A DNA stretch of 64,000 nucleotides from an uncultured Pseudomonadota bacterium (GTDB taxonomy: Bacteria > Pseudomonadota > Alphaproteobacteria > RF32 > CAG-239). A model generated the notes under the pieces. That model was given only the letters and a program-made list of their open reading frames with translations. It was not told the origin of the DNA and ran no database searches. The stretch is from the NCBI GenBank assembly GCA_949289935.1, contig CASEQD010000002.1:1847-65846 (forward strand), written 5' to 3'. Below, in pieces: positions 9,828 to 52,594 of the stretch; position 1 is the stretch's first letter; the number at the start of each line of letters is the position of its first letter. The translations under genes and the position numbers were made by a program.

Positions 9828-9852
9828 ATGTTTGTTATGTTAAAGCAAAAAA

Positions 9853-9879
9853 GCGGGGAGTTTTCTTCGCTTTTTTTTT
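9853..9879 (+). terminator. putative intrinsic terminator after infB
   Basis: A short GC stem with two G-U pairs (GCGGGG/CTTCGC) followed by T9. Confidence 0.4.
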
Positions 9880-9880
9880 G

Positions 9881-9908
9881 TTGACTTTTGTCTAATAAGG
9901 CGTAGTAT
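9881..9908 (+). promoter_or_regulatory. sigma70-like promoter of the ORFan at 9949
   Basis: TTGACT, a 16-nt spacer, then TAGTAT. The TTGACTTTTGTCTAA part is identical to 17907-17921. Confidence 0.4.
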
Positions 9909-9948
9909 ACCTTACGATATTTTATTATTTATTTAAATTATTAAACAT

Positions 9949-10491
9949 ATGAAAAAATTTTTTGAAATTCTGAACGCAATCGGTTTGTACAAAGCAAAAC
10001 AGGAAGGGTGTTTTTCACAAAAGCAGCAGCAAAAGCCTGTTGTTGAGGAAATTGAAATTTTTGACGGAAAAGAATATCCTTTTGAGTTGGTGTATGAGGA
10101 TGACAGTGTTTCGAACGTGTTTACTTCCGGAAAGAAAATTAAGGGTGTGATTTTGTCTCAGAACGGCAGGCATTTGTTTGTCGGGCGTTTTTTTTCCCGC
10201 CGGAAGCTTACTCAGGGCAAGGCCGCGGAATATTGTAAAAAAATTTCGTTTCGGGGAAAAATGTGCCGTCAGATGAATGAAGATGAGCTGAGGTATTTGT
10301 GCAATGAAAATGCGGCGTTGTTGAATGACGCTCCGGGGATTTTACTGATTCCGGATGATTTTGTCTGGACTGAAGTTCCGGTTCCTGCTTATCGGGGTTT
10401 TTATCTGGTTGTAAATTTACAGACAGGAATGGCTGCCTGGAAAAACGGCGCCTATTATTGTTATGCCGTGCCGGTTTGCAGTTTGGATTAA
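9949..10491 (+). CDS. hypothetical protein with DUF1566/Lcl-C-like motifs and no signal peptide
   Basis: KAAEYCKKISFRGKMCRQMNEDELRYL resembles the eA..yC....WRLPt..EL signature. VWTEV...VVNLQTGMAAWKNG...YAVPVC resembles the C-terminal half of that domain. Confidence 0.4.
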   Translation: MKKFFEILNAIGLYKAKQEGCFSQKQQQKPVVEEIEIFDGKEYPFELVYEDDSVSNVFTSGKKIKGVILSQNGRHLFVGRFFSRRKLTQGKAAEYCKKISFRGKMCRQMNEDELRYLCNENAALLNDAPGILLIPDDFVWTEVPVPAYRGFYLVVNLQTGMAAWKNGAYYCYAVPVCSLD

Positions 10492-10502
10492 GTAAAAAAT
10501 TG

Positions 10503-10535
10503 AAAAAAAGCTTCGGAAGTTTCCGAAGCTTTTTT
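10503..10535. terminator. bidirectional intrinsic terminator
   Basis: A7-GCTTCGG-loop-CCGAAGC-T6, sitting between convergent genes. Confidence 0.6.
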
Positions 10536-10551
10536 GTTGTTGTTAAGTTTT

Positions 10552-10857
10552 TTAGAATTCTATAACTTGATATGTTCCGCTTGTTTTACCTGAACCGTTT
10601 TTGAAAGTTGTGTATAGTTCATGTAAATAATTGCCTCCGCAAGATAAAAACCAAATAGAATTCTGGTCAAATTCTGTTGAAGAGTATACATTAGTCAGAT
10701 ACCCATTACCGGCATAATCGTAATTATGGCAGATTTTCGCTCCCAGTTTTTCGAATACGCTGTGGTTTCCAAATATCATGCATTTACAATTTTCTTCTTC
10801 ATCTGCCGGTATAATACCTCTGCTGCCGGACAGATTCAGCAAGGATATTTTTTTCAC
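10552..10857 (-). CDS. short DUF1566-like protein (C-terminal-half homolog of the secreted family); GTG start
   Basis: 101 aa ending ...YSSTEFDQNSIWFLS...GTYQVIEF. Compare WSSTEY...AWAW...VWPVIEF in the neighbouring paralog. It has no signal peptide and is divergent from paralog A. Confidence 0.35.
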   Translation of the reverse strand: MKKISLLNLSGSRGIIPADEEENCKCMIFGNHSVFEKLGAKICHNYDYAGNGYLTNVYSSTEFDQNSIWFLSCGGNYLHELYTTFKNGSGKTSGTYQVIEF

Positions 10858-10860
10858 CTC

Positions 10861-11145
10861 TGTATGAAATTAATGATTGAACACTTGTGAAATTCATGCT
10901 ACACTAAAACCAGTGATGATAAAGTGTGGAGGATGAAATGCGTGTGATTCTTTCCGCCGGCAAAAGGATATATTTTACCCTGCTGGCTTTTTACCCTGCT
11001 GGCTTCTTCTTTTATGTTCCCGGTTTCCGCTTTTGCCCAGTGCGTGAAAAATGAAAATTGTGCGGCGTTAGGCTATGATTCGACAACAGCATGCGATAAC
11101 GGCATCAAATGCCCGTTTGGGGAATATTGGGCGTGTCCCGAACCT
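10861..11145 (+). repeat. conserved 5' module of the secreted-protein family, copy A (promoter, 5'UTR, signal peptide, first Cys motif)
   Basis: Near-identical to the reverse complement of 19177-19451 and 44735-45002. It includes TTGAAC-17-TACACT (10877-10905), a GGAGG RBS and ATG 10938. Confidence 0.8.
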
Positions 11146-11778
11146 GTCAAACCGGAAGGCGCCGTCCTCGGTCAGTGTAACGGGTATGCCAAAAACTGCA
11201 AAATCGGCGATATTCTTTATACGGACGGTATCTGTTCCGCCGATGTCGTTTCCGGTAAAACCCCGATTGCCGTCGTCGTTTATATCGGCGGGGATGGTTG
11301 TGGCCAGGCTTTGGCGTTGGAAAATTTGGGTAAAATGGTTTGGTCTACGGAAAATGTTAATATTCCGGAACTGGAAAATTTTTGGAATAAAGCTGAAAGT
11401 AATTACAGCAGTTGTAAAAATACACACGCTGTTTTAGAATACAGTAATGAAAAATATAAAAATGCGGCTTCACAATATTATCCTGCTTTTAAGGCTGTTA
11501 ACGATTATACACCATCGATTATCCCTGAAACCAAGGGTAAATGGTGTCTGCCGGCCGGCGGTGTATTGGACAGTATTTCCAAAAATACAAAAATCATAGG
11601 TACTGCTTTGGTGAAAACAGGTAAAGATAATTTTAATGTTTCCGGATGGTTGACCCTATGGTCATCAACGGAGTATACTGATAATACGGCATGGGCATGG
11701 ACATTAACAGGGGAGTTATCTCATGGTTCCACTTTTAAAAATTCTGACATATATGTCTGGCCGGTAATTGAGTTTTAA
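10938..11778 (+). pseudogene. secreted Cys-rich DUF1566-like protein, paralog A, frameshifted in the signal peptide
   Basis: From ATG 10938 the frame ends at TGA 11052-11054. Deleting one 16-bp unit joins it in frame to ORF 11014-11778 (MFPVSAFAQCVKNENCAALGY...WCLPAGGVL...LWSSTEY...VWPVIEF). Confidence 0.65.
10973..11004. repeat. perfect 16-bp tandem duplication (TTTTACCCTGCTGGCT x2)
   Basis: Read directly from the sequence. The other two paralogs carry a single unit at the homologous site. Confidence 0.95.
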
Positions 11779-11794
11779 AATTTGATATATACCA

Positions 11795-11829
11795 ACAGAA
11801 AACGCTTCCGGAGAGGAAGCGTTTTCTGT
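11795..11829. terminator. bidirectional intrinsic terminator
   Basis: A perfect 15-bp stem, ACAGAAAACGCTTCC / GGAAGCGTTTTCTGT, with loop GGAGA and a T-run on the + side. It lies between convergent genes. Confidence 0.7.
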
Positions 11830-11833
11830 TGTT

Positions 11834-14668
11834 TTATTTCCGTTCGGTTTTATCCATCGGCAGGGGGTCTTTTGAACCGCTGTTGTAGAGGATGGCATTG
11901 CTGATTTCGGAATTCTTAACCGGAATGTCTTTAATCTGTTTTCCGCAGATTTCCAGTCCGACACTCTTTATTGCGGTGGCAATCGGCAGGAACAGGTCGG
12001 CATTTTGTCCGGCTTTCTGTCCGGTATGAGCCAAACCGGCGATGGTGCCGTGCTGGTCGATCAGAGCTCCGCCGAGCGTGATATCCTGAACGAAAGTATC
12101 AACAATAATTTCGGTGCCGCGGTCTTCGGAATAACGGTAGCCGCTGACTTTTCCGGAATTTTCGAGATAGCCTTCACCGGTATCAAAGTCCAGAATGCCG
12201 AGGGTCAGATAAGTTTCCTGACTAATCGGCGGCAGATCGAGGTTCAGAGACAGCGGTGTGTAGGCGGTTTTCTTTTCCATGAACAACAGGGCAACGTTTT
12301 TCTTCGGGTTAATCCGGACAGCATGTCCTTTAAATTTGACACCGTTGATGGTTTGCAGTTCATAAGTATTGTTATCTTTGGTGATTAAATCCGCCGAGGT
12401 CAGGACAAACTGGTCTGAGATAATCAGACCGGCGCCTTTCCGTCCTTTGTTGTTGGCAATGGAAATGATTGAAGCGCGGATTTTGTAAACATCTTCAGGC
12501 GTTAACGGCGCGTCATAAGCCGGGCGTTCGATTATGCAAAGGCTGTTTTGCGCATCAAGGGCGCTCTTATCTTCGACCGGCAGAGATACCCATGTTTCTT
12601 TGGTGACGGAACCGGTTGCCTCGACACCGCCTTTTTCTTCAATATCAAGATCAATGTTATTGGCAATTTTGCAACCTTCAGGATCATGGGCGCAATCGCC
12701 GAACATGGTTTGTTTGTCGCAGCCGCCATAGAATTTGTTGTCTTCACAACCGCGATAGAGCTTATTGTCTTCGCAGCCGCGGTAGAGTTTATTATTGCAG
12801 TCGCAATCAGGGCCGAACAATGTCATATTATTGCACGGCGTTTCCGGTTTGGGCAGCGGCGGAACGGGCAGGGGAATCGTACCGCCCGGGTTTTCCATGG
12901 TTACAGTGTTTAAGTCCACTTCAATTTCGGCGGCATTTTCAATAACTTCTTTTTGTCCGTAGCGTTTTTCCGGCGCTTCAGGCAACAGGCTGATATCCAG
13001 AGGTTCGGACGGACGTTCTTTTTCGAGCAAATCAACAGCATTGACGGGTGCCGGTTCTTCTATTGTCGTTACCACGGCAGAGATGGTTTTTGTTGTCGTT
13101 TCTGCTACAGGCAGAGGCACGGGAGGCGTCGGAACGGCCGGTGTCGGCAGGGAAACTTCGACCGGTTCTTTTTCAATAACGGTTGTTTCAATTTTTTCTT
13201 TAACGATTATGGGTTCGCTCTTTTCCAGCGGCAGAGGCGCCGGCGGCGTTTTGACAATGCTTCCGTCCGATTGTTTTTGAACAACGGAACCATCGGAAAG
13301 TTTTGCCACGCTGGTCGGAACCGGGAGTTGTTCTTTAAGATAATCCGGTTTGATCAGAGGAGAAGGCGCTGCCGGTTCCGGTACTTTTACTTTTTCCGCA
13401 GGTTTGTCGGGGGTGTAAATATATTTGCTGGTTTGTCCGGCTTCAATGTCGTGTTTTGTGTATTGACACTTCAGCGGATTGACTTCACGTTCGTGTTCAA
13501 TGTAGGCAATTCTCTGGTTTTCTTTTTCCGCAGGACTTAGACGGTGTGTCAGTTGTTTTTGGAAACCCGGGTGGTTGCCGAGGTTGTTGGCCGCATCGGC
13601 AAAGGCTCTTTCCACCAGAAGGATTTCACCGTTTTGTTCGCCGCGCTTCAGTTCGCCGTAACCGTTGGTTTCTCCGCTCCAATAGGCTTTTGTTTTGTTT
13701 ATGTCGGTGATTGTCCATTTAACTGTGATTTCGGAGGAGCCGGTGCGCCGGTCTTCACGGATGCTGTTGTCCCAGTCATATTCATCACAGACGTTCATGA
13801 AGTAATTGGTGATTTCCGCCGTAACGAGATATTCAGGGAGCGGGCTGGGCGTATCTTCCGTACAGACATCATCCGGAATTTTTATGAAATTGTAGCATTC
13901 TTTAAGTTCATTTTCGAAAACAGAGATGAGACGCATGTTTTGCCGCAGCAGCCGTCCCTGATCCAGAATAGCTTCTTTGCTGAAACGGCGGCAGCCGAAA
14001 ATGCGGAAGCGGTAATTGCCGAGTTTTTGTGGAAAGGCGTCATTTAAATCATCGCCGTTTAAACGAAAATCAACCCATTCCAACTGGATGGGGGCGAATT
14101 TTTTGCATTGATTATGAATGCTGCGGTAGACATCTCTCCGGCCGACGGTGATGTAGTTGTTTACGAAATTTTCCCGCCGGGGGGCGATTTCTTCTGCTGT
14201 AATCCGACGCTTTTTTACCGGTTTGCAGACGGCTTTTTTAGGGGCTGGTTTTACTTTGACGCAGCCGCGCATTTCATCCGAAGAACAACCGTGGCCGGGA
14301 AAAATGCTGTTGTCCTGTTTTTTTGTTGATTCGCAACAGGTGCCGCCGAATATACTGCCGTCACGGTAGGTTTTTCCCGTGCTTTTAACATTGACTACCG
14401 GTTGCGGACGACGTTGTTCCAACCGTGTGTTTATGCGGCTGTCGGCTTCTCCGGAGAAGGAAATTTCTTTGGGGCGGGCTTCGTCGAAAAAGCCCATGGA
14501 GCGGCTTAATCCCGTATATTCTGTACGGACGGTGCGACTGCCGGCCGGTGTTTCTTCGCGGAAAGAGTTGCCGTATTGGGAAGCCATGCTTTCGGAGAAT
14601 GCCGCACTGCATAAGGACAAAGCCATGGCAGAACAGGCCAAGAGTTTGAAACACCGTGTGATTTTCAT
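11834..14668 (-). CDS. large secreted or lipoprotein-like protein with a Pro-rich linker, Cys-rich repeats and a C-terminal trypsin-like (S1C-type) domain lacking the catalytic triad
   Basis: 944 aa. Signal/lipobox-like N-terminus (KLLACSAMALSLCSAAFS), a PxP-rich middle and NKLYRGCED repeats. The C-terminus reads GAGLIISDQFVLTSADL / NVALLF / TLGGALIDQHGTIAGL, which mimics the GSGFxI..TNxHV / DxALL / GNSGGPL blocks. Confidence 0.6.
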   Translation of the reverse strand: MKITRCFKLLACSAMALSLCSAAFSESMASQYGNSFREETPAGSRTVRTEYTGLSRSMGFFDEARPKEISFSGEADSRINTRLEQRRPQPVVNVKSTGKTYRDGSIFGGTCCESTKKQDNSIFPGHGCSSDEMRGCVKVKPAPKKAVCKPVKKRRITAEEIAPRRENFVNNYITVGRRDVYRSIHNQCKKFAPIQLEWVDFRLNGDDLNDAFPQKLGNYRFRIFGCRRFSKEAILDQGRLLRQNMRLISVFENELKECYNFIKIPDDVCTEDTPSPLPEYLVTAEITNYFMNVCDEYDWDNSIREDRRTGSSEITVKWTITDINKTKAYWSGETNGYGELKRGEQNGEILLVERAFADAANNLGNHPGFQKQLTHRLSPAEKENQRIAYIEHEREVNPLKCQYTKHDIEAGQTSKYIYTPDKPAEKVKVPEPAAPSPLIKPDYLKEQLPVPTSVAKLSDGSVVQKQSDGSIVKTPPAPLPLEKSEPIIVKEKIETTVIEKEPVEVSLPTPAVPTPPVPLPVAETTTKTISAVVTTIEEPAPVNAVDLLEKERPSEPLDISLLPEAPEKRYGQKEVIENAAEIEVDLNTVTMENPGGTIPLPVPPLPKPETPCNNMTLFGPDCDCNNKLYRGCEDNKLYRGCEDNKFYGGCDKQTMFGDCAHDPEGCKIANNIDLDIEEKGGVEATGSVTKETWVSLPVEDKSALDAQNSLCIIERPAYDAPLTPEDVYKIRASIISIANNKGRKGAGLIISDQFVLTSADLITKDNNTYELQTINGVKFKGHAVRINPKKNVALLFMEKKTAYTPLSLNLDLPPISQETYLTLGILDFDTGEGYLENSGKVSGYRYSEDRGTEIIVDTFVQDITLGGALIDQHGTIAGLAHTGQKAGQNADLFLPIATAIKSVGLEICGKQIKDIPVKNSEISNAILYNSGSKDPLPMDKTERK
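12714..12791 (-). repeat. in-frame 27-nt tandem repeats encoding NK(L/F)Y(R/G)GC(E/D) units
   Basis: 12738-12764 and 12765-12791 are near-identical. 12714-12737 is a shorter, diverged third unit. Confidence 0.8.
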
Positions 14669-14681
14669 TTAATTTTCTCCA

Positions 14682-16205
14682 TTATTTTCTCCGGTCGGGT
14701 AAAGCTCTGCGGTAAGACAAAGCTTCAGCTATATGCAGTTTAAGCACATTTTCATTATTTTGCAAGTCTGCAATTGTTCTTGCTAACCGTAAAATGCGAT
14801 GGTAAGCGCGGGCGGAAAGATTGTTTTTGTCGGCAAAAGCAATCAAAAGCGCTTCGGCGTCGTTGTCCAGCCGTACGGCTTGTTCCAGCAAGCTGCCTTT
14901 CAGTTCGGCATTTGTGTGCAGTTCAGGATGTCCGAAACGGCGGAATCTTTCGGTTTGGATGTTGCGGGCGGCAACAACCCTTTTTAAGATTTCAGCCGAA
15001 GTTTCACCGGTTTTGATATCGGCAATTTCCCAGGGACTAACGGCAGGAACTTCAATTTGTATGTCTATGCGATCCAGCAGAGGACCGGATATCCGCGCCT
15101 GATATTCTTCGGCACATTTCGGAGCACGGGAGCATTCAAAGCGGGGATTGCCCAAATTGCCGCACCGGCAAGGGTTCATTGCCGCGATAAGCTGAAATTT
15201 TGCCGGATAGGTTGTGTGAGCGTTGACGCGGGATATAGTGATGCTGCCATTTTCCAGAGGCTGACGCAGGGCTTCCAATGTCGCCCGGTTGAATTCGGGA
15301 AGCTCGTCCAAGAACAAAACGCCGTTGTGGGCGAGAGAAATTTCGCCCGGTTCAGCCCGCCGTCCGCCGCCGACCAGTGCAGGCGTCGATGCATTATGAT
15401 GCGGCGCCCGGAAAGGACGTTCAAAACAAAGCTGTCCTTCTTTCAGAATGCCGGCAACGGAGTGAATCATGCTGGTTTCAAGCGCTTCTTCGGCCGTGAG
15501 CGGCGGCAGAATTCCCGGTAATCTGGCGGCAAGCATGCTTTTCCCGGCACCGGGCGGGCCGATCATGAGCATGTTGTGTCCGCCTGCAGCCGCAATTTCC
15601 AATGCTTTTTTTGCACTTTCCTGACCTTTGACATCTTTCATGTCGGGATGTCTGAGAGACGGCATTTTATGCGGCCGGCCGGGCGGCGGGATGAGTTGAG
15701 CGCCCTTGAAGTGGTTGATGAGCGCCAGAAGCGACGGCGCCGCTATGATGTTTTTTAAGCCGGACCACGCTGCTTCGGCTCCCTGTGCTTCGGGGCAGAT
15801 GAGCCCCAGGTTTTGTTCATTGGCTTTGATTGCGACGGGGAGAGCTCCGTTAACGGGAAGAATGTTTCCGTCCAGGCTTAATTCGCCCAGAACAAGATAT
15901 CCGGAAAGTTCTTCCGAAGGGATGATGCCCATTCCGCACAGCAGTCCCAGAGCGACAGGCAAGTCAAAATGCGCTCCTTCTTTTAACAAATCGGCCGGCG
16001 CGAGGTTGACAATAATGCGTTTGGCCGGGACGGACAGTCCCAGCGAACTGAGCGCGGCGCGTACGCGTTCGCGGCTTTCCGCCACGGATTTATCCGGCAG
16101 GCCGACAATGGAAAATGCCGGCATTCCCGAAGAAAGTTGTACCTGGAGGTCAACATTTATAACATCCAGCCCGTTGAAAGTTATCGTATTGATTCTGGAC
16201 AGCAT
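14682..16205 (-). CDS. yifB: YifB/ComM family Mg-chelatase-like AAA+ ATPase
   Basis: 507 aa with a Lon-protease-like N-domain, Walker A GPPGAGKS, GVLFLDELPEF and a typical C-terminal helical domain. Confidence 0.9.
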   Translation of the reverse strand: MLSRINTITFNGLDVINVDLQVQLSSGMPAFSIVGLPDKSVAESRERVRAALSSLGLSVPAKRIIVNLAPADLLKEGAHFDLPVALGLLCGMGIIPSEELSGYLVLGELSLDGNILPVNGALPVAIKANEQNLGLICPEAQGAEAAWSGLKNIIAAPSLLALINHFKGAQLIPPPGRPHKMPSLRHPDMKDVKGQESAKKALEIAAAGGHNMLMIGPPGAGKSMLAARLPGILPPLTAEEALETSMIHSVAGILKEGQLCFERPFRAPHHNASTPALVGGGRRAEPGEISLAHNGVLFLDELPEFNRATLEALRQPLENGSITISRVNAHTTYPAKFQLIAAMNPCRCGNLGNPRFECSRAPKCAEEYQARISGPLLDRIDIQIEVPAVSPWEIADIKTGETSAEILKRVVAARNIQTERFRRFGHPELHTNAELKGSLLEQAVRLDNDAEALLIAFADKNNLSARAYHRILRLARTIADLQNNENVLKLHIAEALSYRRALPDRRK

Positions 16206-16211
16206 GTTTGG

Positions 16212-16553
16212 TTACCACCTGGGCGTTCTTTCATATTCCCTCCAACGGCGGGTGGGGTTGGTTTCTCTGGTGAGAAAATCATAATTTGCCGTTTTATAAG
16301 GGATATCGCGGAAACGGACGTAGTTTTTCTTTTCAAAACTTCTGGCGCAGCTTTCGGCTGAGGAAAAAGCCGTGCGGTAGCAATGAACGATGTTTCTGGA
16401 AACGGGTTCCAGCAGGCTGATTGATTCAGGAACATTGACATAGTCTGCCGGAGCTGGGATGTACCGGATTGTTTTTCCGCCAGGCGTAAACCAGGCACAG
16501 GAACTTCCTGCCAGCAGGGTGCATACCGCAACCATAATTTTGAACTTTGACAT
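16212..16553 (-). CDS. putative small lipoprotein
   Basis: Signal peptide with lipobox-like LLAGSSC. It lies 6 nt upstream of yifB on the same strand. Confidence 0.45.
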   Translation of the reverse strand: MSKFKIMVAVCTLLAGSSCAWFTPGGKTIRYIPAPADYVNVPESISLLEPVSRNIVHCYRTAFSSAESCARSFEKKNYVRFRDIPYKTANYDFLTRETNPTRRWREYERTPRW

Positions 16554-16664
16554 TTGTTGTTTATTTCCCGTTAGTTTTTTAGTTGAATTTAGCAGAAAAT
16601 AATTAATATATCATAAACGCATCGGGGATGAAGGGTGCGAAAAAATGTTTTTTATAAAAAAAGC

Positions 16665-16692
16665 TTGCAAAATAAAGTTTTTGGTGTATATT
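16665..16692 (+). promoter_or_regulatory. sigma70-like promoter of rpsF-rpsR-rplI
   Basis: TTGCAA, a 16-nt spacer, then TATATT, about 90 nt upstream of rpsF. Confidence 0.4.
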
Positions 16693-16782
16693 ACGCCCGT
16701 TCCTTGCTCGCAAAAAGCGGGCTATACAATAGAACCAGCCCGGTTTCCGGGCATTTGTTGAGAATCCATAAGGAGATTTTGT

Positions 16783-17112
16783 ATGACTAATTATGAAAGC
16801 GTGCTGATTGCACGTCAGGATTTGGGCGCCTCCCAAGTCAGCAGCATTGTCGATGAACTGACAAATGTTGTTAAAAAAGAAGGCGGCGAAGTTGTCAGAG
16901 TTGATAACTGGGGTTTGAAAAATCTGGCTTACCGCATTAAGAAAAACCGCAAAGGCCATTATGTTTTGATGAACATTACCGCTCCGGCCGGGGCTATTGC
17001 CGAACTGGAACGGGTTATGCGCTTTAACGAAGATATTATCCGTTATATGACGGTTAAAGTCGACGAATTCAGCGAAGTTTCGTCGTCCGAAAAAGAAGCT
17101 GCGGAAGAATAG
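16783..17112 (+). CDS. rpsF: 30S ribosomal protein S6
   Basis: YESVLIARQD... plus an acidic C-terminus, and the rpsF-rpsR-rplI gene order. Confidence 0.9.
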   Translation: MTNYESVLIARQDLGASQVSSIVDELTNVVKKEGGEVVRVDNWGLKNLAYRIKKNRKGHYVLMNITAPAGAIAELERVMRFNEDIIRYMTVKVDEFSEVSSSEKEAAEE

Positions 17113-17124
17113 GAGGTTAAGACA

Positions 17125-17352
17125 ATGGCTAAACAGGTATTTTTCAGAAGAAAGAAAACTTGTCCGTTTTCCGGTGAAGATGCTTTGAAGATTGATTATA
17201 AAGACGTTAAGCTTCTTTCAAGATATATTTCGGAAAAAGGAAAAATCATTCCCAGCCGCATTACTGCGGTTTCCGTTAAAAAGCAGAGAGAACTGGCCCG
17301 CGCCATCAAACGCGCCCGCTATATCGGTCTGCTTCCGTTTGTGGCTGATTAG
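17125..17352 (+). CDS. rpsR: 30S ribosomal protein S18
   Basis: [35 protein letters not shown] motif. Confidence 0.9.
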
Positions 17353-17366
17353 GAAGGAGAGAAAAT

Positions 17367-17852
17367 ATGGAAATTATTCTTCTGGAACATGTAGACAAAC
17401 TGGGTAAAATGGGCGACAAGGTTACCGTTAAAAACGGTTATGCCCGTAACTATCTTCTGCCGAGCAAAAAGGCACTGCGCGCCACAGAGGCCAATGTTGC
17501 TTTTTATGAAAAGAAAAAGGCAGAGCTTGAAGCCCACAATAAGGCTTTGTTTGACGAGGCTTCCAAAAAAGCCGAGGCTCTCAAAGGCTACAGCGCGGTT
17601 CTTATCCGTCAGGCTGCCGAAACCGGTCAGCTGTATGGTTCCGTTACCATTCGCGATATTGCCGCTGCTATTAAAGAATCCGGTTTTGAAGTTGAACGCC
17701 GCTGCGTTTTTCTTGATAAGCCGATTAAGGATCTGGGAATTTACGAAGTTAAGCTGAATCTTCATCCGGAAGTTACTCAGACAATTTTGGTGAATGTTGC
17801 CAGAACTGATGATGATGCCAAAAAACAGGCTAAGGCTTACGAAAATAACTAG
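17367..17852 (+). CDS. rplI: 50S ribosomal protein L9
   Basis: MEIILLEHVDKLGKMGDKVTVKNGYARNYLLP N-terminal domain. Confidence 0.9.
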   Translation: MEIILLEHVDKLGKMGDKVTVKNGYARNYLLPSKKALRATEANVAFYEKKKAELEAHNKALFDEASKKAEALKGYSAVLIRQAAETGQLYGSVTIRDIAAAIKESGFEVERRCVFLDKPIKDLGIYEVKLNLHPEVTQTILVNVARTDDDAKKQAKAYENN

Positions 17853-17874
17853 TTTGTTTTTTGTCGGTTTTGAA

Positions 17875-17905
17875 GCAGGGTGCTCAGGTACTCTGCTTTT
17901 TTTTT
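17875..17905 (+). terminator. intrinsic terminator after rplI
   Basis: GCAGGGT / ACTCTGC stem (one G-U pair), 8-nt loop, then T9. Confidence 0.6.
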
Positions 17906-17906
17906 G

Positions 17907-17935
17907 TTGACTTTTGTCTAAATTTTAGATATAAA
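17907..17935 (+). promoter_or_regulatory. sigma70-like promoter of the ORFan at 17976
   Basis: TTGACT, a 17-nt spacer, then TATAAA. The first 15 nt are identical to 9881-9895. Confidence 0.5.
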
Positions 17936-17975
17936 GGGAATGATATTGTATTTTTTTAATTATAATTATAGAATT

Positions 17976-18428
17976 ATGAAAAAGAAAAAATTTCAAGGAA
18001 GTGTCAAATTTGACATTTTGTATGCCGGTGGTGAAATTTCGGAAAATTTGATTCCGGGGAAGAAAATTGAAGCAGTTGCTTATAACGGGTATGCAGTTTG
18101 GGCAGAAGATGTTCCGGAGTGGTTTACCAGCGAGGAAGCGGCTGAAAAGGTGAAGAATTTTTCTATCGGCGGGCAGGTTTGCAATTTGGGGCCTGATGGA
18201 TTTTGGACATCAATTAAGTTTGTCTCGGATGAGTTGAAACAGTTTATGTTAGGAATTCGTGTTGCACCCATCAGAGGCGCCGTGTGGACAGAAAAGCTTC
18301 GGGACGGGGACGTGAATAAAAGGGTTTTTGTTTATCCTGATACCGGGGAATTTGGCGCACAGAACAGAGAGACGAACTTTATCCGTCCGGTGGTTCGGGT
18401 GGCCGACTGTTCATTAAAGCGGATTTGA
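17976..18428 (+). CDS. hypothetical protein with DUF1566/Lcl-C-like motifs and no signal peptide
   Basis: WFTSEEAAEKVKNFSIGGQVC..., GAVWTEK...VFVYPDTGEFG...FIRPVVRV. It shares GKKI(K/E)(G/A)V with the 9949 protein. The start is the ATG at 17976; the ORF track begins at 17940. Confidence 0.4.
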   Translation: MKKKKFQGSVKFDILYAGGEISENLIPGKKIEAVAYNGYAVWAEDVPEWFTSEEAAEKVKNFSIGGQVCNLGPDGFWTSIKFVSDELKQFMLGIRVAPIRGAVWTEKLRDGDVNKRVFVYPDTGEFGAQNRETNFIRPVVRVADCSLKRI

Positions 18429-18449
18429 GATGAAATTTTTTGTGTAAAG

Positions 18450-18484
18450 AAAGGGTTCCGGGATTTGTCCGGAGCCCTTTTTTT
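18450..18484. terminator. bidirectional intrinsic terminator
   Basis: GGGTTCCGG / CCGGAGCCC stem (one G-U pair) followed by T7, with an A-rich 5' flank, between convergent genes. Confidence 0.6.
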
Positions 18485-18498
18485 GTTAGGAAGTGCTT

Positions 18499-19368
18499 CT
18501 AAAATTCAAAGTAGTTCCATACATATACACCTGTATCAAAAAGGTCTATGGGAATTTCTTGTAATTCCGATGTTTCAAATTTTAACTGAGATTCTGGAGC
18601 ATAATAATCCATTCTTATGCTGTATCCCCATAATACATTTGCGGCGCCTGATACGGCAGCGTTGGTGCTGAATGTCCGGAAATTTTGCCATTCGAAACCA
18701 TCAAAGGAGGTCAGTCCGGCTCTGGTAAGTTTGTGTGCTATTTCCGTTAAATTGTTTATTAGAGACTTTGCTACGCCGCCGGGTATGCCGATTTCCCGAA
18801 AATTTGAATTGAAATTGTTTTCAGCTTCGGTTTTTGTGAGTTTTGGCAGATTATTGTAATAATTGTTGGTTAAAACATAGGAATTAACGGATGATCTACC
18901 GATATAACCGGTTACGGCATATCCGCCGCCGCCGGGTTTTGTGTAGGCAACCACGCCTTTGGGGGTTTTTGAACTGTCAAAGTTGTAGGAGCAGGTATCG
19001 TCGGTGTAATAAATGTATCCGATTTGACATTTGGGAAGAGTTTTACTGCAGGTTCCGTTGTTCCATTCATATCCGGCAGCGCAGTTGCAGAAAGTGTATT
19101 TTCCATTGCAGGCTCCGGTTAACGGCTTTTTTTGATTGGTTCCGGTGCAAGTGTATTTGTATGACGTACCGCATTTTTCTTCCGGGCACGCCCAATACTC
19201 GCCGAACGGGCATTTCAGGCAATTTTCTTTGTTGGTTGTTTCTGTATAACCCAAAGCAGAACAGTCTTTATTTTCCACGCACTGGGCAAAAGCGGAAATT
19301 GGGAACATAAAAGAAGAAGCCAGCAGGGTAAAATATACCTTTTTGCCGGCGGAAAGAATCACACGCAT
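18499..19368 (-). CDS. secreted Cys-rich protein, paralog B (family N-terminal module with a divergent C-terminal region)
   Basis: MRVILSAGKKVYFTLLASSFMFPISAFA-QCVENKDCSALGY...KCPFGEYWACPEE. An AFA-Q signal-peptidase site is present, and the C-terminus ends ...VWNYFEF. Confidence 0.6.
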   Translation of the reverse strand: MRVILSAGKKVYFTLLASSFMFPISAFAQCVENKDCSALGYTETTNKENCLKCPFGEYWACPEEKCGTSYKYTCTGTNQKKPLTGACNGKYTFCNCAAGYEWNNGTCSKTLPKCQIGYIYYTDDTCSYNFDSSKTPKGVVAYTKPGGGGYAVTGYIGRSSVNSYVLTNNYYNNLPKLTKTEAENNFNSNFREIGIPGGVAKSLINNLTEIAHKLTRAGLTSFDGFEWQNFRTFSTNAAVSGAANVLWGYSIRMDYYAPESQLKFETSELQEIPIDLFDTGVYVWNYFEF

Positions 19369-19451
19369 TTCATCCTCCTCCTCCACACTTTATCATCACT
19401 GATTTTAGTGTAACATGAATTTTCTAATTGTTCAATCATTATTTTCATGCA
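19177..19451 (-). repeat. conserved 5' module of the secreted-protein family, copy B
   Basis: The reverse complement aligns with 10861-11145 and with the reverse complement of 44735-45002. It includes TTGAAC-17-TACACT and the signal-peptide codons. Confidence 0.8.
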
Positions 19452-19498
19452 GAAATGAAAAAAATGAAGAGGATTTTTTTTGATTCATACCCCACCCG

Positions 19499-19518
19499 CC
19501 TCCCCTACTCAGGGGAGG
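19499..19518. repeat. perfect hairpin CCTCCCCT-ACTC-AGGGGAGG
   Basis: 8-bp stem with a 4-nt loop. The identical hairpin occurs at 45155-45174. Half-sites TACTCAGGGGAGG recur at 19533-19545 and 19663-19675. Confidence 0.85.
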
Positions 19519-19579
19519 AAAAATGGAGAGGATACTCAGGGGAGGGATATAAGGAGTAAAGCAAAGCTGCTTCGGTCAA

Positions 19580-19636
19580 CTGAATTGTAACGATTGTTTC
19601 CTTAGGCTGCCGCCTGTTCACAATCTAACAATTCAG
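19580..19636. other. long imperfect hairpin in an intergenic region
   Basis: cTGAATTGT (19580-19588) pairs with ACAATTCAg (19628-19636). GATTGT (19592-19597) pairs with ACAATC (19620-19625). The loop is 22 nt. Confidence 0.6.
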
Positions 19637-19701
19637 ACTCTGTCGTTGAAAAACAATTGATGTACTCAGGGGAGGAAACGATTGTTGCTTTTTGATTTTT
19701 C

Positions 19702-44107: not shown

Positions 44108-44926
44108 CTAAAACTTGATTATAGGGCGAATGCTACTGTAAGTGTGTTTGCCGTCGGCATAGAAGTTGGAATTGCTCAAAGACAAGCGCCAAGCCCATCC
44201 AGTTGTGGAGCCATATTCGGATGATGACCACCAGGAATTGTTGCCGATGTTTTCTTTGTTGATTCTGGTTAAACTTTGATCAATGGCTGTTTTATTTTGG
44301 TTAATACTGTTTAACACACCGCCGGCCGGCAAACACCATTTACCCTTTGTTTCCGGCATGGTTGATGGGGCATAGTTGTATACCTCCCAGAATGCCGGAT
44401 AATAATTTGAAGCATAGTCTCCGTATTGTTTGTAACTGTAATCAATAACTGTTTTCGTATTCTCACAGCTGTCAAAATCGTTTGTTGGCTCACTGCTGTA
44501 ATTTGGTAAATCAGGAATTTTGACAGATTCTGTTGACCAGTAGAAATTTCCCAGTCCTTCTAGCGCCAGAGCCTGGCCGCAGCCGTTTTCGCCGATATAA
44601 ACAACAATGCCGACCGGCTCAACTCCGCTGACACGGTAGTCCGAACAGCTGCCATCAATATTTAAGATTTGCCCGATTTTGCAGTTTTTGGCATAACCGG
44701 TACATTGGCCGAGAATGGCTCCTTCAGGTTTTGCAGGTTCGGGACATGCCCAATATTCACCGAACGGACATTTAATACCGTTATCACATGCTGTTGTCGA
44801 ATCGTAGCCTAATGCCGCACAGTTTTCATTTTCCACACACTGGGCAAAAGCGGAAATGGGGAACATAAAAGAAGAAGCCAGCAAGGTAAAATATATCCTT
44901 TTGCCGGCGGAAAGAATCACACGCAT
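44108..44926 (-). CDS. secreted Cys-rich DUF1566/Lcl-C-like protein, paralog C (intact)
   Basis: MRVILSAGKRIYFTLLASSFMFPISAFA-QCVENENCAALGYDSTTACDNGIKCPFGEYWACPEP..., GIVVYIGENGCGQALALEGLG..YWS, KGKWCLPAGGVLNSI, WWSSSEYGSTTGWAW...IRPIIKF. It is colinear with paralog A. Confidence 0.6.
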   Translation of the reverse strand: MRVILSAGKRIYFTLLASSFMFPISAFAQCVENENCAALGYDSTTACDNGIKCPFGEYWACPEPAKPEGAILGQCTGYAKNCKIGQILNIDGSCSDYRVSGVEPVGIVVYIGENGCGQALALEGLGNFYWSTESVKIPDLPNYSSEPTNDFDSCENTKTVIDYSYKQYGDYASNYYPAFWEVYNYAPSTMPETKGKWCLPAGGVLNSINQNKTAIDQSLTRINKENIGNNSWWSSSEYGSTTGWAWRLSLSNSNFYADGKHTYSSIRPIIKF

Positions 44927-45002
44927 TTCATCCTCCACACTTTATTACACTGATTTTAGTGTAGCATGGATTTTGTTATATGTAAATCATTAATTTCATA
45001 CA
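44735..45002 (-). repeat. conserved 5' module of the secreted-protein family, copy C
   Basis: The reverse complement aligns with 10861-11145. The promoter is TTTACA-17-TACACT, followed by a GGAGG RBS and signal-peptide codons almost identical to copies A and B. Confidence 0.8.
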
Positions 45003-45043
45003 AAGGTGAAAAAAATGAAGAGGATTTTTTTGAATCATACCCC

Positions 45044-45154: not shown

Positions 45155-45174
45155 CCTCCCCTACTCAGGGGAGG
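45155..45174. repeat. perfect hairpin CCTCCCCT-ACTC-AGGGGAGG (second copy)
   Basis: Identical to 19499-19518. A related CCTAGGGGAGGAG follows at about 45192-45204. Confidence 0.85.
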
Positions 45175-45396
45175 AGAAAGTGTGGAGCCCTACCTAGGGG
45201 AGGAGACAAATCAGATAATTTGTTTTTACGGATGTTTTATCCGAGAAATCCCCGGGATGAGCCCGGGGATGACGATATTGATGATTGTTTTTTTGGGACA
45301 GGATGTTTTCTTTTCCTTCCCTATTTTTGACTGTCCAATTTTTCGGGGAACAGTTCAGCGTTTTTCGGGGGATGTCCTGAAAACAAACAGTTTGAA

Positions 45397-51427: not shown

Positions 51428-52594
51428 ATGTCAGATGATAATAAAACGAATGATTTGACGGAAAAGAACACGGCAGAGGACGGGGTTTGTCATTGGCGCG
51501 CTGTTTCCAGAGAGGAAAACAGCGATGCTTCTCCGGTTGCAGAATACTCTGAAACTCCGGCTTCTGAAAGCAGAACAGAAAGTGTTTTGGCAGATGTTTC
51601 CAATGAGGCATCCGAGAAAGAAGACGGCAGTGTTGTTTACAGCAATGCTGTTTTGAGCGGGCGGAATTTTTCGGGCGCCGATTTGACAGGCGCCGATTTT
51701 TCCGGAGCCGATTTGACAGGCGCTGATTTTTCCGGTGCAATTTTGAAAGATGTTAATTTTGCGGGCGCCGATTTGACAGGCGCCGATTTTTCCGGAGCCG
51801 ATTTGACAGGCGCTGATTTTTCCGGTGCAATTTTGAAAGATGTTAATTTTGCGGGCGCTAATTTGGAAGGCGTCAAATTGTCCGGTGCGGATATAGAGGG
51901 CGCCGTTTTTCGGGAAATACGCATTGATGAGTTGGGAACCGGGGAATTGCAGGCATTGATAGAATATCTGGCAAAATATTATCCTCATAAACTTAATCTG
52001 AGTAAAATAAATCTGCAGTTGTTGGATTTGACGCGAATAGATTTGACGCAGCTTGATTTGCGCGGTGCGGATTTTACGGGTGTGGATTTTACGGGAGTCA
52101 ATATTACCGGGCTGGATTTGAGTTCGTGCATTATTACACCGGCTCAAATCGCTCAGGCTTTGGGACGAACGCCCAGTCAGAGCGAATTGGCGAAAATTTT
52201 GCCACCACGGAAAAAAAACGGAAAAGGGCAGGATTGGACAATCGACTGGCAGGATTTTTTTCTGAATGACCGGGAAATCGGCGTGTGGGATACAACCAAA
52301 GACAGTGGCTTTGATATAGACAAGATGGTAAAAACAGGGCGGAAAGTTTTTAGCAAAGAAGCTGCCAAACCCCGGCTTAAGGAGGGAAAAGGAAAAATTC
52401 GCTCCGAAAGAGAAGCCCGGGAAAAAGAACATAATGAAAAAATGCGGGAAATTATTGAAAAAAACAAGCAAGCCGTTTTGGAAGCCCGAAAAGAACAAAA
52501 AAAAGAATTTGAAGAACAAAGACAATCCGAAGATCAGGGAAAATATGAACTTGATATTTCCCTGATGCATTCGCGCGGCAGTCATGAGCGTTGA
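51428..52594 (+). CDS. pentapeptide-repeat protein with an acidic N-terminus and a Lys/Glu-rich C-terminus
   Basis: Runs of A(D/N)L(T/S)GA(D/I)FSGA pentapeptide units over aa 75-160 and again at 195-240. Confidence 0.8.
   Translation: MSDDNKTNDLTEKNTAEDGVCHWRAVSREENSDASPVAEYSETPASESRTESVLADVSNEASEKEDGSVVYSNAVLSGRNFSGADLTGADFSGADLTGADFSGAILKDVNFAGADLTGADFSGADLTGADFSGAILKDVNFAGANLEGVKLSGADIEGAVFREIRIDELGTGELQALIEYLAKYYPHKLNLSKINLQLLDLTRIDLTQLDLRGADFTGVDFTGVNITGLDLSSCIITPAQIAQALGRTPSQSELAKILPPRKKNGKGQDWTIDWQDFFLNDREIGVWDTTKDSGFDIDKMVKTGRKVFSKEAAKPRLKEGKGKIRSEREAREKEHNEKMREIIEKNKQAVLEARKEQKKEFEEQRQSEDQGKYELDISLMHSRGSHER
51673..51852 (+). repeat. perfect 90-bp tandem duplication (2 units) inside the pentapeptide-repeat gene
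   Basis: 51673-51762 is identical to 51763-51852 by direct reading. It is in frame and adds 30 aa, which is six pentapeptide units. Confidence 0.9.

Follow-up and report, generated by a model that had tools for sequence, protein, structure and literature searches.

Large, lineage-specific expansion of DUF1566-related domains is known from a gut bacterium, Fibrobacter succinogenes, in its major paralogous domain family (TIGR02145), and programmed variation is exemplified by the vsp and vpma genes of Mycoplasma, the opa genes of Neisseria and invertible promoters. To our knowledge, an N-terminal Cys module and a shared head are not among the features of the TIGR02145 family. In the vpma, vsp and vsa lipoprotein families of Mycoplasma, the 5'UTR and the signal peptide are conserved and the mature parts differ (PMC2268961), and in the tandem lipoprotein paralogues of Staphylococcus aureus the evolutionary unit comprises the 3' part of an ORF, the intergenic DNA and the 5' part of an ORF (PMC2568036). 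The C-terminal domain of Legionella Lcl (Lcl-CTD) is a C-type-lectin-like, GAG-binding trimer that lacks disulfides (PMC11162425). DUF1566 domains are also found at the distal, binding end of long fimbrial or fibre proteins, as in BACOVA_04982 of Bacteroides ovatus (PDB 4eps) and in the tips of phage tail fibres, including those of crAss-like phages.

We analysed a 64-kb stretch of DNA (64,000 nucleotides, referred to as the window) of an uncultured gut alphaproteobacterium that carries three genes for Cys-rich proteins, copies A, B and C, in which a common head, reaching from the promoter region to the signal-peptide codons, is joined to variable bodies. This is a case of concerted evolution, acting on a 5' module for expression and export in a multigene family of surface or secreted proteins. 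Patterns of this kind are known; neither the family nor its host lineage nor its modular heads have been described. As in the Mycoplasma families, the head is conserved across a multigene family and recombination takes place at the head. However, the Mycoplasma genes are clustered, with one active promoter, silent genes and an Xer-type recombinase, whereas the present genes are scattered and complete, the window ORFs that were scanned include no recombinase and the leader is of the SPase-I rather than the lipoprotein type. The likeness to the S. aureus paralogues lies in the recombination unit, which is made up of non-coding DNA and a 5' coding end and is not the ORF; those genes form a tandem cluster in a Gram-positive organism, whereas the present copies lie 8-34 kb apart, on both strands and amid housekeeping genes.

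Copy A (coding region 10938..11778, + strand) has an A/C-type body and is disrupted in this assembly. Copy B (18499..19368, − strand) encodes 289 aa from MRVIL, and its body, as read from the sequence, consists of a four-Cys module, an additional Cys-rich insert and a diverged C-terminal domain with the end VWNYFEF. Copy C (44108..44926, − strand) is intact and encodes 272 aa, with a signal peptide, a four-Cys module and an extended DUF1566-like domain. The DNA of the window belongs to the core chromosome (rimP-nusA-ylxR-infB, rpsF-rpsR-rplI, rbfA-truB-pnp and pta-ackA-carD), and a tRNA scan of it gave no matches; A and B lie in a stretch of about 9.8 kb between infB and rbfA, and C is located between carD and an unknown 206-aa gene. 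Downstream of A, a strong hairpin with a T-run (11793..11831, +) is likely to be a terminator common to A and a convergent 944-aa gene. Two small ORFs with VIEF-/RPVV-like tails, 10552-10857 (−) and 17940-18428 (+), were rejected as family members, since the profile matches were weak (probability 20% and 4%, respectively).

An earlier note on this DNA had proposed three loci with a common 5' module. The 28-mer ATGCGTGTGATTCTTTCCGCCGGCAAAA has exactly three matches in the 64 kb, at 10938 (+), 19368 (−) and 44926 (−), where none is expected by chance, and alignment confirms the module. According to a repeat finder and the alignment, the part common to A, B and C is about 190-270 nt long, beginning about 90-125 nt ahead of the ATG and ending around codon 33. 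It starts at about 10847 in A, at a T-run some 90 nt upstream of the ATG, and at about 19493 in B and 45043 in C, some 125 nt upstream of the ATG, at GGGGTATGA. The A7-8/T6-7 runs upstream of the −35 element vary. The head of A (10847..11053, +) contains the T-run, the promoter-like hexamers (TTGAAC 10877-10882 and TACACT 10900-10905), GGAGG (10928-10932), the ATG (10938) and the signal-peptide codons through QCV. That of B (19269..19493, −) comprises the hexamers (TTGAAC 19435-19430 and TACACT 19412-19407), GGAGGAGGAGG (19384-19374), which is the B version of the GGAGG found 5 nt ahead of the ATG, the ATG itself (19368-19366) and the signal-peptide codons. In the head of C (44827..45043, −), the corresponding elements are TTTACA (44986-44981), a TG-extended −10-like TACACT (44963-44958), GGAGG (44936-44932) and the ATG (44926-44924).

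Read against the consensus, the −35/−10-like pair is TTGAAC-17-TACACT in A and B and TTTACA-17-TACACT in C, and on this reading of the hexamers the head would function as a promoter. A promoter scan reported that of C as the sole one among the three, A and B falling below the cutoff with 8/12 matches, and its counts in the window were not in excess over shuffles. The leader common to the three copies is MRVILSAGK(R/K)(I/V)YFTLLASSFMFP(I/V)SAFA|QC, and it is followed by the Cys motif C..LGY...KCPFGEYWACPE. All of the promoter-like, GGAGG, leader and Cys motifs listed previously are present in the sequence, and the near-identity described for the first ~90 coding nt is reflected in 95-96% identity of the signal-peptide codons in each pair. 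The exact 28-mer of the head gave no match in genome contigs, nor did a 32-mer of the leader in metagenome contigs.

To compare the heads with the bodies, we used a codon alignment of A, B and C from which the duplication in A (see below) had been taken out, and dS was calculated by the Nei-Gojobori method. Over the 28 leader codons, dS was 0.05-0.10 in all three pairs. In the four-Cys module, dS between A and C was 0.93 despite 97% aa identity and was saturated in the pairs with B; in the rest of the bodies it was saturated throughout, with dN of 0.36-0.85. The four-Cys module has the look of protein-level selection, from which the leader differs because its silent sites are near-identical too. 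This silent-site contrast inside a single ORF provides a clean natural case of sub-genic concerted evolution.

The identity between A and C was 85% over the 249 nt that follow the signal-peptide codons and about 60% thereafter, in agreement with the 80-90% over ~250 nt estimated by eye in the earlier note. Divergence of B had been placed after CPEE; B does diverge, with identity to the others of about 50% from roughly +100, but at the DNA level this begins right after QCVEN. Maximum chi-squared analysis located the breakpoint in the A-B and B-C pairs at about +100 nt, after QCVEN, where identity falls from 0.88-0.91 to 0.46-0.51, and in the A-C pair at about alignment column 351, with a fall from 0.89 to 0.60. 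The chi-squared values were 88-108, whereas permutations gave 20 at most, and the observed value was reached in 0 of 500. Since identity drops at supported breakpoints, the profile, which had been put up for a check of flatness, is stepped, with dS rising from 0.05-0.10 in the head to between 0.9 and saturation beyond it. A and C also share a second, older tract.

As regards the encoded proteins, a DUF1566/Lcl signature had been recognised by eye in the C-terminal parts. This holds at the level of fold for A and C, but the Pfam scores are below the cutoff and B gives no match. A and C both contain WCLPAGGVL, WSS(T/S)EY and a terminal x-(E/K)-F, and the Pfam model PF07603 (Lcl_C) matched A with 18.7 bits and C with 18.2 bits (E 2-3e-3), short of the gathering cutoff of 34.9; the Pfam scan of B gave no Lcl_C match. 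Sub-threshold Lcl_C matches were found in 21 of 97 relatives at E<=0.01 (best E 4.6e-5), and the more distant relatives P0167, P0175 and P0180 carry a precomputed PF07603 annotation. Searches of A, B and C against NCBIfam and PHROGs returned nothing useful, and the TIGR02145-type NCBIfam family matched none of them at E<=1. The AlphaFold (AF2) model of C (pLDDT 87) was matched by Foldseek to BACOVA_04982 (E 6.3e-7), to the Legionella Lcl C-terminal domain (8q4e; E 2.9e-5, probability 1.0, TM(target) 0.62) and to DUF1566 phage proteins in BFVD, including tail fibres (E 4e-13 to 2e-4), the best of these (E 4e-13) with an rmsd of 2.4 Å over 195 columns. In the family profile, WSSSE...VRPVIEF was aligned with the C-termini of 4eps and 8q4e; the corresponding stretch is WSSTEY...VWPVIEF in A and WSSSEY...IRPIIKF in C, each consisting of a WSS-type motif and a C-terminal strand of the VRxVxxF type. 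A and C accordingly have a predicted extended DUF1566/Lcl-C-type (C-type-lectin-like) fold; the Pfam link is remote, and the support for this assignment is mainly structural.

The AF2 model of B (pLDDT 85) has an order of strands and helices similar to that of C. Foldseek against the PDB gave no match to it at E<=0.001, and a DUF1566 match was not detected in the C-terminal half of B; with a confident model that has no PDB fold match, B cannot be assigned to DUF1566. We regard it as a diverged subfamily.

With the Lcl-CTD and PF07603, A and C share the fold, the WSSxE-type motif and the C-terminal strand with its final F, and like Lcl they would be exported and presumably ligand-binding. They are unlike Lcl in their Pfam scores below the gathering cutoff and in having neither a collagen-like stalk (no collagen-like repeats are visible in the sequences of A, B and C) nor an N-terminal helix. 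Moreover, the A/C-type domain has about 200 residues with a helical insertion, compared with 117 residues in the Pfam Lcl_C model. The additional N-terminal four-Cys module of the present family is missing from Lcl, and ten conserved cysteines contrast with the lack of disulfides in the Lcl-CTD (PMC11162425): the mature parts of A, B and C contain 11-13 Cys, and 10 Cys are invariant or almost so across the 97 relatives. BACOVA_04982 and the phage tail-fibre tips are the best structural matches of C; in contrast to their arrangement, the domain here follows just a signal peptide and a small Cys module, and identity is 15-21%.

The leader has three K/R within its first 11 residues and a hydrophobic core, (I/V)YFTLLASSFMF (KD maximum 1.7), ahead of the site AFA|Q, and other family leaders show the same A|QC site on alignment. 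Residues 1-29 are unstructured in the AF2 models of B and C. The charge, the hydrophobicity and the small residues at −3 and −1 mark the leader as a putative Sec/SPase-I signal. Because the same fold caps phage tail fibres and heads the Legionella Lcl adhesin, the proteins are most likely to be exported binding or adhesion proteins with diversified specificities, and this gives a concrete hypothesis for the dealings of these organisms with host glycans, other microbes or phages.

A search with C retrieved 279 relatives, all from MAGs and all unnamed or 'hypothetical', and a profile scan of species-representative genomes gave 138 loci, in a few gut MAGs. The host MAGs are 'uncultured Azospirillum sp.' UMGS63, Pseudomonadota S36M_St_32, two BRZ bins and Candidatus Scatocola faecigallinarum, a lineage placed in the Rhodospirillales by the NCBI taxonomy. 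More than 30 copies, mostly single genes spread over many contigs, are present in each of the two richest genomes, so that related uncultured gut Alphaproteobacteria carry dozens of family copies per genome. Of 1.84 billion cluster representatives, 232 matched the profile at E<=1e-30 and 3838 did so at E<=1e-3; up to six tandem domains occur in some. These gut Alphaproteobacteria belong to a group known from metagenome bins alone, and in annotation the family is hypothetical and lacks a Pfam domain. The genes that neighbour A, B and C in the window did not occur within 3 kb of any of 79 family loci from other genomes, and the positions of the family genes are therefore lineage-specific.

Searching with B revealed full-length relatives (P0151-P0154, P0156 and P0157) with 47-55% identity over 97-100% of the length. 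These B-type proteins have a WQGFEF end and leaders unrelated to that of B (MRRIFLMSS..., MRKLYLLSS...), from which it follows that the B body is older than its present head. One of them, P0154 in MAG S36M_St_32, was rejected as a positional orthologue of B, its genomic context being different. Relatives of the A/C bodies are likewise found with unrelated leaders, and bodies of the B type and of the A/C type have closer relatives in other genomes than they have in each other. Between the window and two sister genomes, the bodies are as similar as they are inside the window, whereas the window heads show no similarity to the heads of the two sister genomes. No counterpart of the signal-peptide part of the head was found outside the window clade.

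Further copies, which the earlier note had suggested looking for, do exist. The MRVIL-type leader occurs in 42 of 191 fetched database proteins, on at least eight classes of Cys module, and head DNA 92-96% identical to the window heads is present in a gene from another sample (L002). Heads and bodies re-assort in such proteins: P0010 and P0018, which have an MRVIL and an MKIK leader, respectively, show 83% identity over the mature part but 18% over the leader, whereas P0018 and P0077 are 100% identical in the leader and 61% in the mature part. The L002 gene is itself a segmental mosaic (runs test, P ~0.001), with a Cys module nearest B, nt 271-360 nearest A (27 versus 6 informative sites) and nt 451-810 nearest C (77 versus 26). 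The unrelated leaders on B relatives, the re-assortment of head and body and the L002 mosaic argue that the head has been homogenised by recombination or gene conversion. Together with the dS contrast and the breakpoints found in 0 of 500 permutations, they bear out the gene conversion or cassette exchange proposed earlier. These comparisons demonstrate recombination among paralogues, for which the leader/mature junction is a recurrent boundary.

We consider it probable that A, B and C are dispersed members of a large family in which a 5' module has been copied by homologous recombination between older subfamilies, that they encode exported binding proteins and that A is off. According to this proposal, the three would be dispersed single-gene members of a very large family, with a protein plan that consists of a Sec-type signal peptide (A-x-A|QC), a four-Cys module of the pattern QC-x5-C-x2-LGY...KCPFG..W.CP and a disulfide-rich domain of about 200 residues. 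The 5' module, which comprises the upstream T-run, a promoter of sigma-70-like type, a short GGAGG-containing 5'UTR and the codons of the signal peptide, would have been copied by gene conversion or exchange between paralogues of different and much older subfamilies, and its downstream junction would be the conserved boundary between AQC and the Cys motif. Genes with variable bodies would as a result share one head for expression and export, and the bodies would themselves be mosaics.

The state of copy A bears on a different possibility, namely that programmed antigenic or phase variation uses the head as its recombination or switching site, with copies toggled or swapped at high frequency. 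In the description of the three loci in the earlier note, it was missed that A is frameshifted. A 16-bp tandem duplication, 2 x TTTTACCCTGCTGGCT (10973-10988 and 10989-11004, +), lies within the A signal peptide and shifts the frame, which is why the product from the ATG at 10938 has just 38 residues; the long ORF restarts at Met 11014, without the leader. The ENA contig L001 is 100% identical to copy A over 900 nt, save for the duplication, which is absent, and its product, P0121 (274 aa), represents the intact form. Thus copy A is apparently switched off at present by a leader duplication absent from an otherwise identical strain, although the duplication could in principle be an assembly error. 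That a frameshift in the leader is the sole difference between the two contigs would suit programmed variation, as would the leader indels in P0015, P0026, P0030 and P0106, a perfect 11-nt inverted repeat around the C promoter and the conserved 5'UTR and signal peptide on variable bodies, a hallmark of vpma/vsp systems (PMC2268961). However, the 11-nt inverted repeat of C is missing in A, B and L002, and none is shared; no copy lacks a promoter-like sequence of its own or a complete ORF, the coding head is without simple-sequence repeats and the loci are dispersed, not clustered. A search with the family HMM in six frames of the window gave three matches, all full length, so that the silent cassettes envisaged earlier are absent there as partial copies. 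No recombinase, invertase or transposase domain was detected among the ~40 window ORFs scanned, and switching machinery was not found in the window. We therefore judge programmed variation to be unlikely.

Recombination would not be needed if an old head had been kept near-invariant by nucleotide-level selection, acting on a regulator-binding promoter region and on an mRNA element in the 5'UTR and early codons. For the promoter/5'UTR part of the head in the window, homologues do exist in sister genomes, ahead of other Cys-rich secreted genes; in one example (L082:4660-4745), the homologue precedes a 415-aa protein that has the family Cys motif at its end, and the B-type gene P0154 follows 15 nt after this gene. 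Identity in this part is 78-86% inside the window clade and 57-72% to the sister-genome homologues, which indicates that the promoter type is old and the leader-coding part clade-specific, and makes some functional constraint there also likely. The existence of another head type with a conserved structured RNA in sister genomes, described below, favours constraint as well. Against selection as the full explanation stand the relatives of the B and A/C bodies that have unrelated leaders, the re-assortment of heads and bodies and the restriction of the signal-peptide part to the clade. In addition, RNA folding of the A, B and C heads was not unusual (z −0.85 to −1.84), and an Rfam scan of the window gave no matches. 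Constraint without recombination is accordingly quite improbable in our view. A third possibility is recent duplication of the whole gene, followed by very rapid divergence of the bodies through positive selection, so that the head alone shows the true young age of A, B and C. This would fit the often rapid evolution of adhesin-like bodies and the body dN values given above but is contradicted by the cross-genome relatives of each body type and by the saturated synonymous sites of the bodies, which positive selection on protein does not cause, and we regard it as highly improbable.

Returning to copying of the module by recombination as the preferred explanation, the heads of the sister genomes offer a comparison. 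There, at least 24 paralogues share a different upstream region of ~230 nt instead, which contains a promoter-like element and several hairpins; conservation looks flat over the region from −90 to −1, and the conserved leader lies further upstream. A long-range helix in this leader shares sequence with the 5' arm of an intrinsic terminator that lies ~25 nt ahead of the RBS. In the leader alignment, 97.7% of cells were paired, as against 36-52% in slid controls, and 15 pairs had changed on both sides; the covariation score was 0.232 compared with 0.109 in shuffles, 0 of 500 of which scored as high. Rfam gave no match to the sister-genome leader at the gathering score, and there was a weak match to sRNA-Xcc1. 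The leader RNA, of roughly 200 nt, is absent from the window. Since a conserved, structured leader RNA is present in the sister genomes, RNA-level control exists in the family. The structured leader is a candidate new cis-regulatory RNA, whose ligand or signal would reveal how the repertoire is controlled.

We suggest, tentatively and as a possibility open to considerable doubt, that the heads of the family serve as control cassettes which can be interchanged. The dozens of lectin-like genes in a genome might then run on a few shared modules: a plain promoter/leader head in the window and, in the sister genomes, the leader RNA, which might be an undescribed riboswitch- or attenuator-like element with a long-range helix in competition with the terminator. 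Recombination might move the modules and leader indels might silence single copies. If this were true, the surface or secreted binding proteins of a gut commensal would form a repertoire that varies and is regulated jointly.

Upstream of the B head, the motif CCTCCCCTGAGTA is present in three copies (19506-19518, 19533-19545 and 19663-19675, −), one of which forms the hairpin CCTCCCCTGAGTAGGGGAGG. The motif also occurs upstream of the C head (45162..45174, −), with a variant close by. Variants of CCTCCCCTGAGTA are likewise located upstream of the L002 head, and the likeness between L002 and the C head extends upstream as far as about 45075.

In two sister MAGs, which are bins of related gut Alphaproteobacteria carrying many copies of the family, at least 24 family paralogues have in common a structured leader of ~200-230 nt (loci L004-L065 and L082, aligned in A6); an example is L029:2744-2996, and the window itself has none. 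The long-range helix of this leader contains three consecutive covarying pairs in the alignment. In these paralogues an intrinsic terminator is located directly 5' of the RBS, and the long-range helix competes with the terminator. When the leader was searched against Rfam, no family was found at the gathering score, the only match being a weak one to sRNA-Xcc1. The leader is a candidate for a new cis-regulatory RNA.

The related genomes also provide information on gene arrangement. In several of them, a family gene of the B type or with an MRK leader lies directly 3' of a gene encoding a larger Cys-rich secreted protein, as observed at L082:4739-6873 and in the regions upstream of L025, L048, L073-L075, L074, L078 and L081. 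The C-terminus of the larger upstream protein bears the family Cys motif (...C.ALGY...KCPF....C..*). This arrangement suggests that the two genes form a conserved unit. Contigs of related assemblies often terminate at most a few hundred bases upstream of a family gene, as seen for L001, the contig that matches copy A (on the + strand of the window), and for 13 of the 79 loci in other genomes (for example L011, L022, L044, L049 and L069). The end of the L001 contig is 18 nt 5' of the ATG. Such ends are to be expected if near-identical heads, the shared promoter-like and signal-peptide modules, break short-read assemblies.

Within the 64 kb of the window, four occurrences of a short motif, CCTCCCCTGAGTA, were found, all on the gene strand (-) and only upstream of copies B (three, 19506-19675) and C (one, 45162-45174). 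The motif is sometimes included in the hairpin CCTCCCCTGAGTAGGGGAGG. Variants were found 5' of the head in L002, a mosaic relative from another sample (L002:20-70), and the motif was absent from the sister-genome loci searched. The predicted promoter of C lies in 233 nt enclosed by the arms of a perfect 11-nt inverted repeat, AAAGTGTGGAG / CTCCACACTTT (44933-44943 and 45177-45187), one arm being C's own 5'UTR/RBS sequence. Comparison of A, B and L002 revealed no such repeat at these three loci, and the repeat at C may reflect chance or may be a remnant.

Copies A and B both lie in the ~9.8 kb (9828-19691) that separates infB from rbfA, splitting the normally contiguous nusA-infB ... rbfA-truB-pnp string. 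This interval also holds a ComM-like Mg-chelatase gene, rpsF-rpsR-rplI, small unknown ORFs and, convergent to A, the gene for a 944-aa protein (11834-14668, - strand). The latter protein has a signal-peptide-like start and is rich in Pro and Glu over a long region; it also contains short repeats with Cys residues (NKLYRGCEDNKLYRGCEDNKFYGGC), and a trypsin-like peptidase domain occupies its C-terminus (Trypsin_2, E 7.5e-7). Divergent from A is a 101-aa ORF (10552-10857, - strand), which starts within A's upstream T-run and whose tail (...SSTEFDQNSIWFLS...TYQVIEF) resembles the family C-terminal end. The family profile matches this ORF only weakly (E 0.11 in hmmsearch; 20% probability in hhalign), and the ORF is perhaps what remains of a decayed family member.

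Elsewhere, a 388-aa pentapeptide-repeat protein gene (51428-52594) contains a 30-nt periodic repeat (51617-51886). The GC content of the window is ~45%, with a strong positive GC skew that is uniform from end to end (+0.05 to +0.29, mostly ~+0.2). Most window genes are carried by the + strand, but B and C by the - strand.
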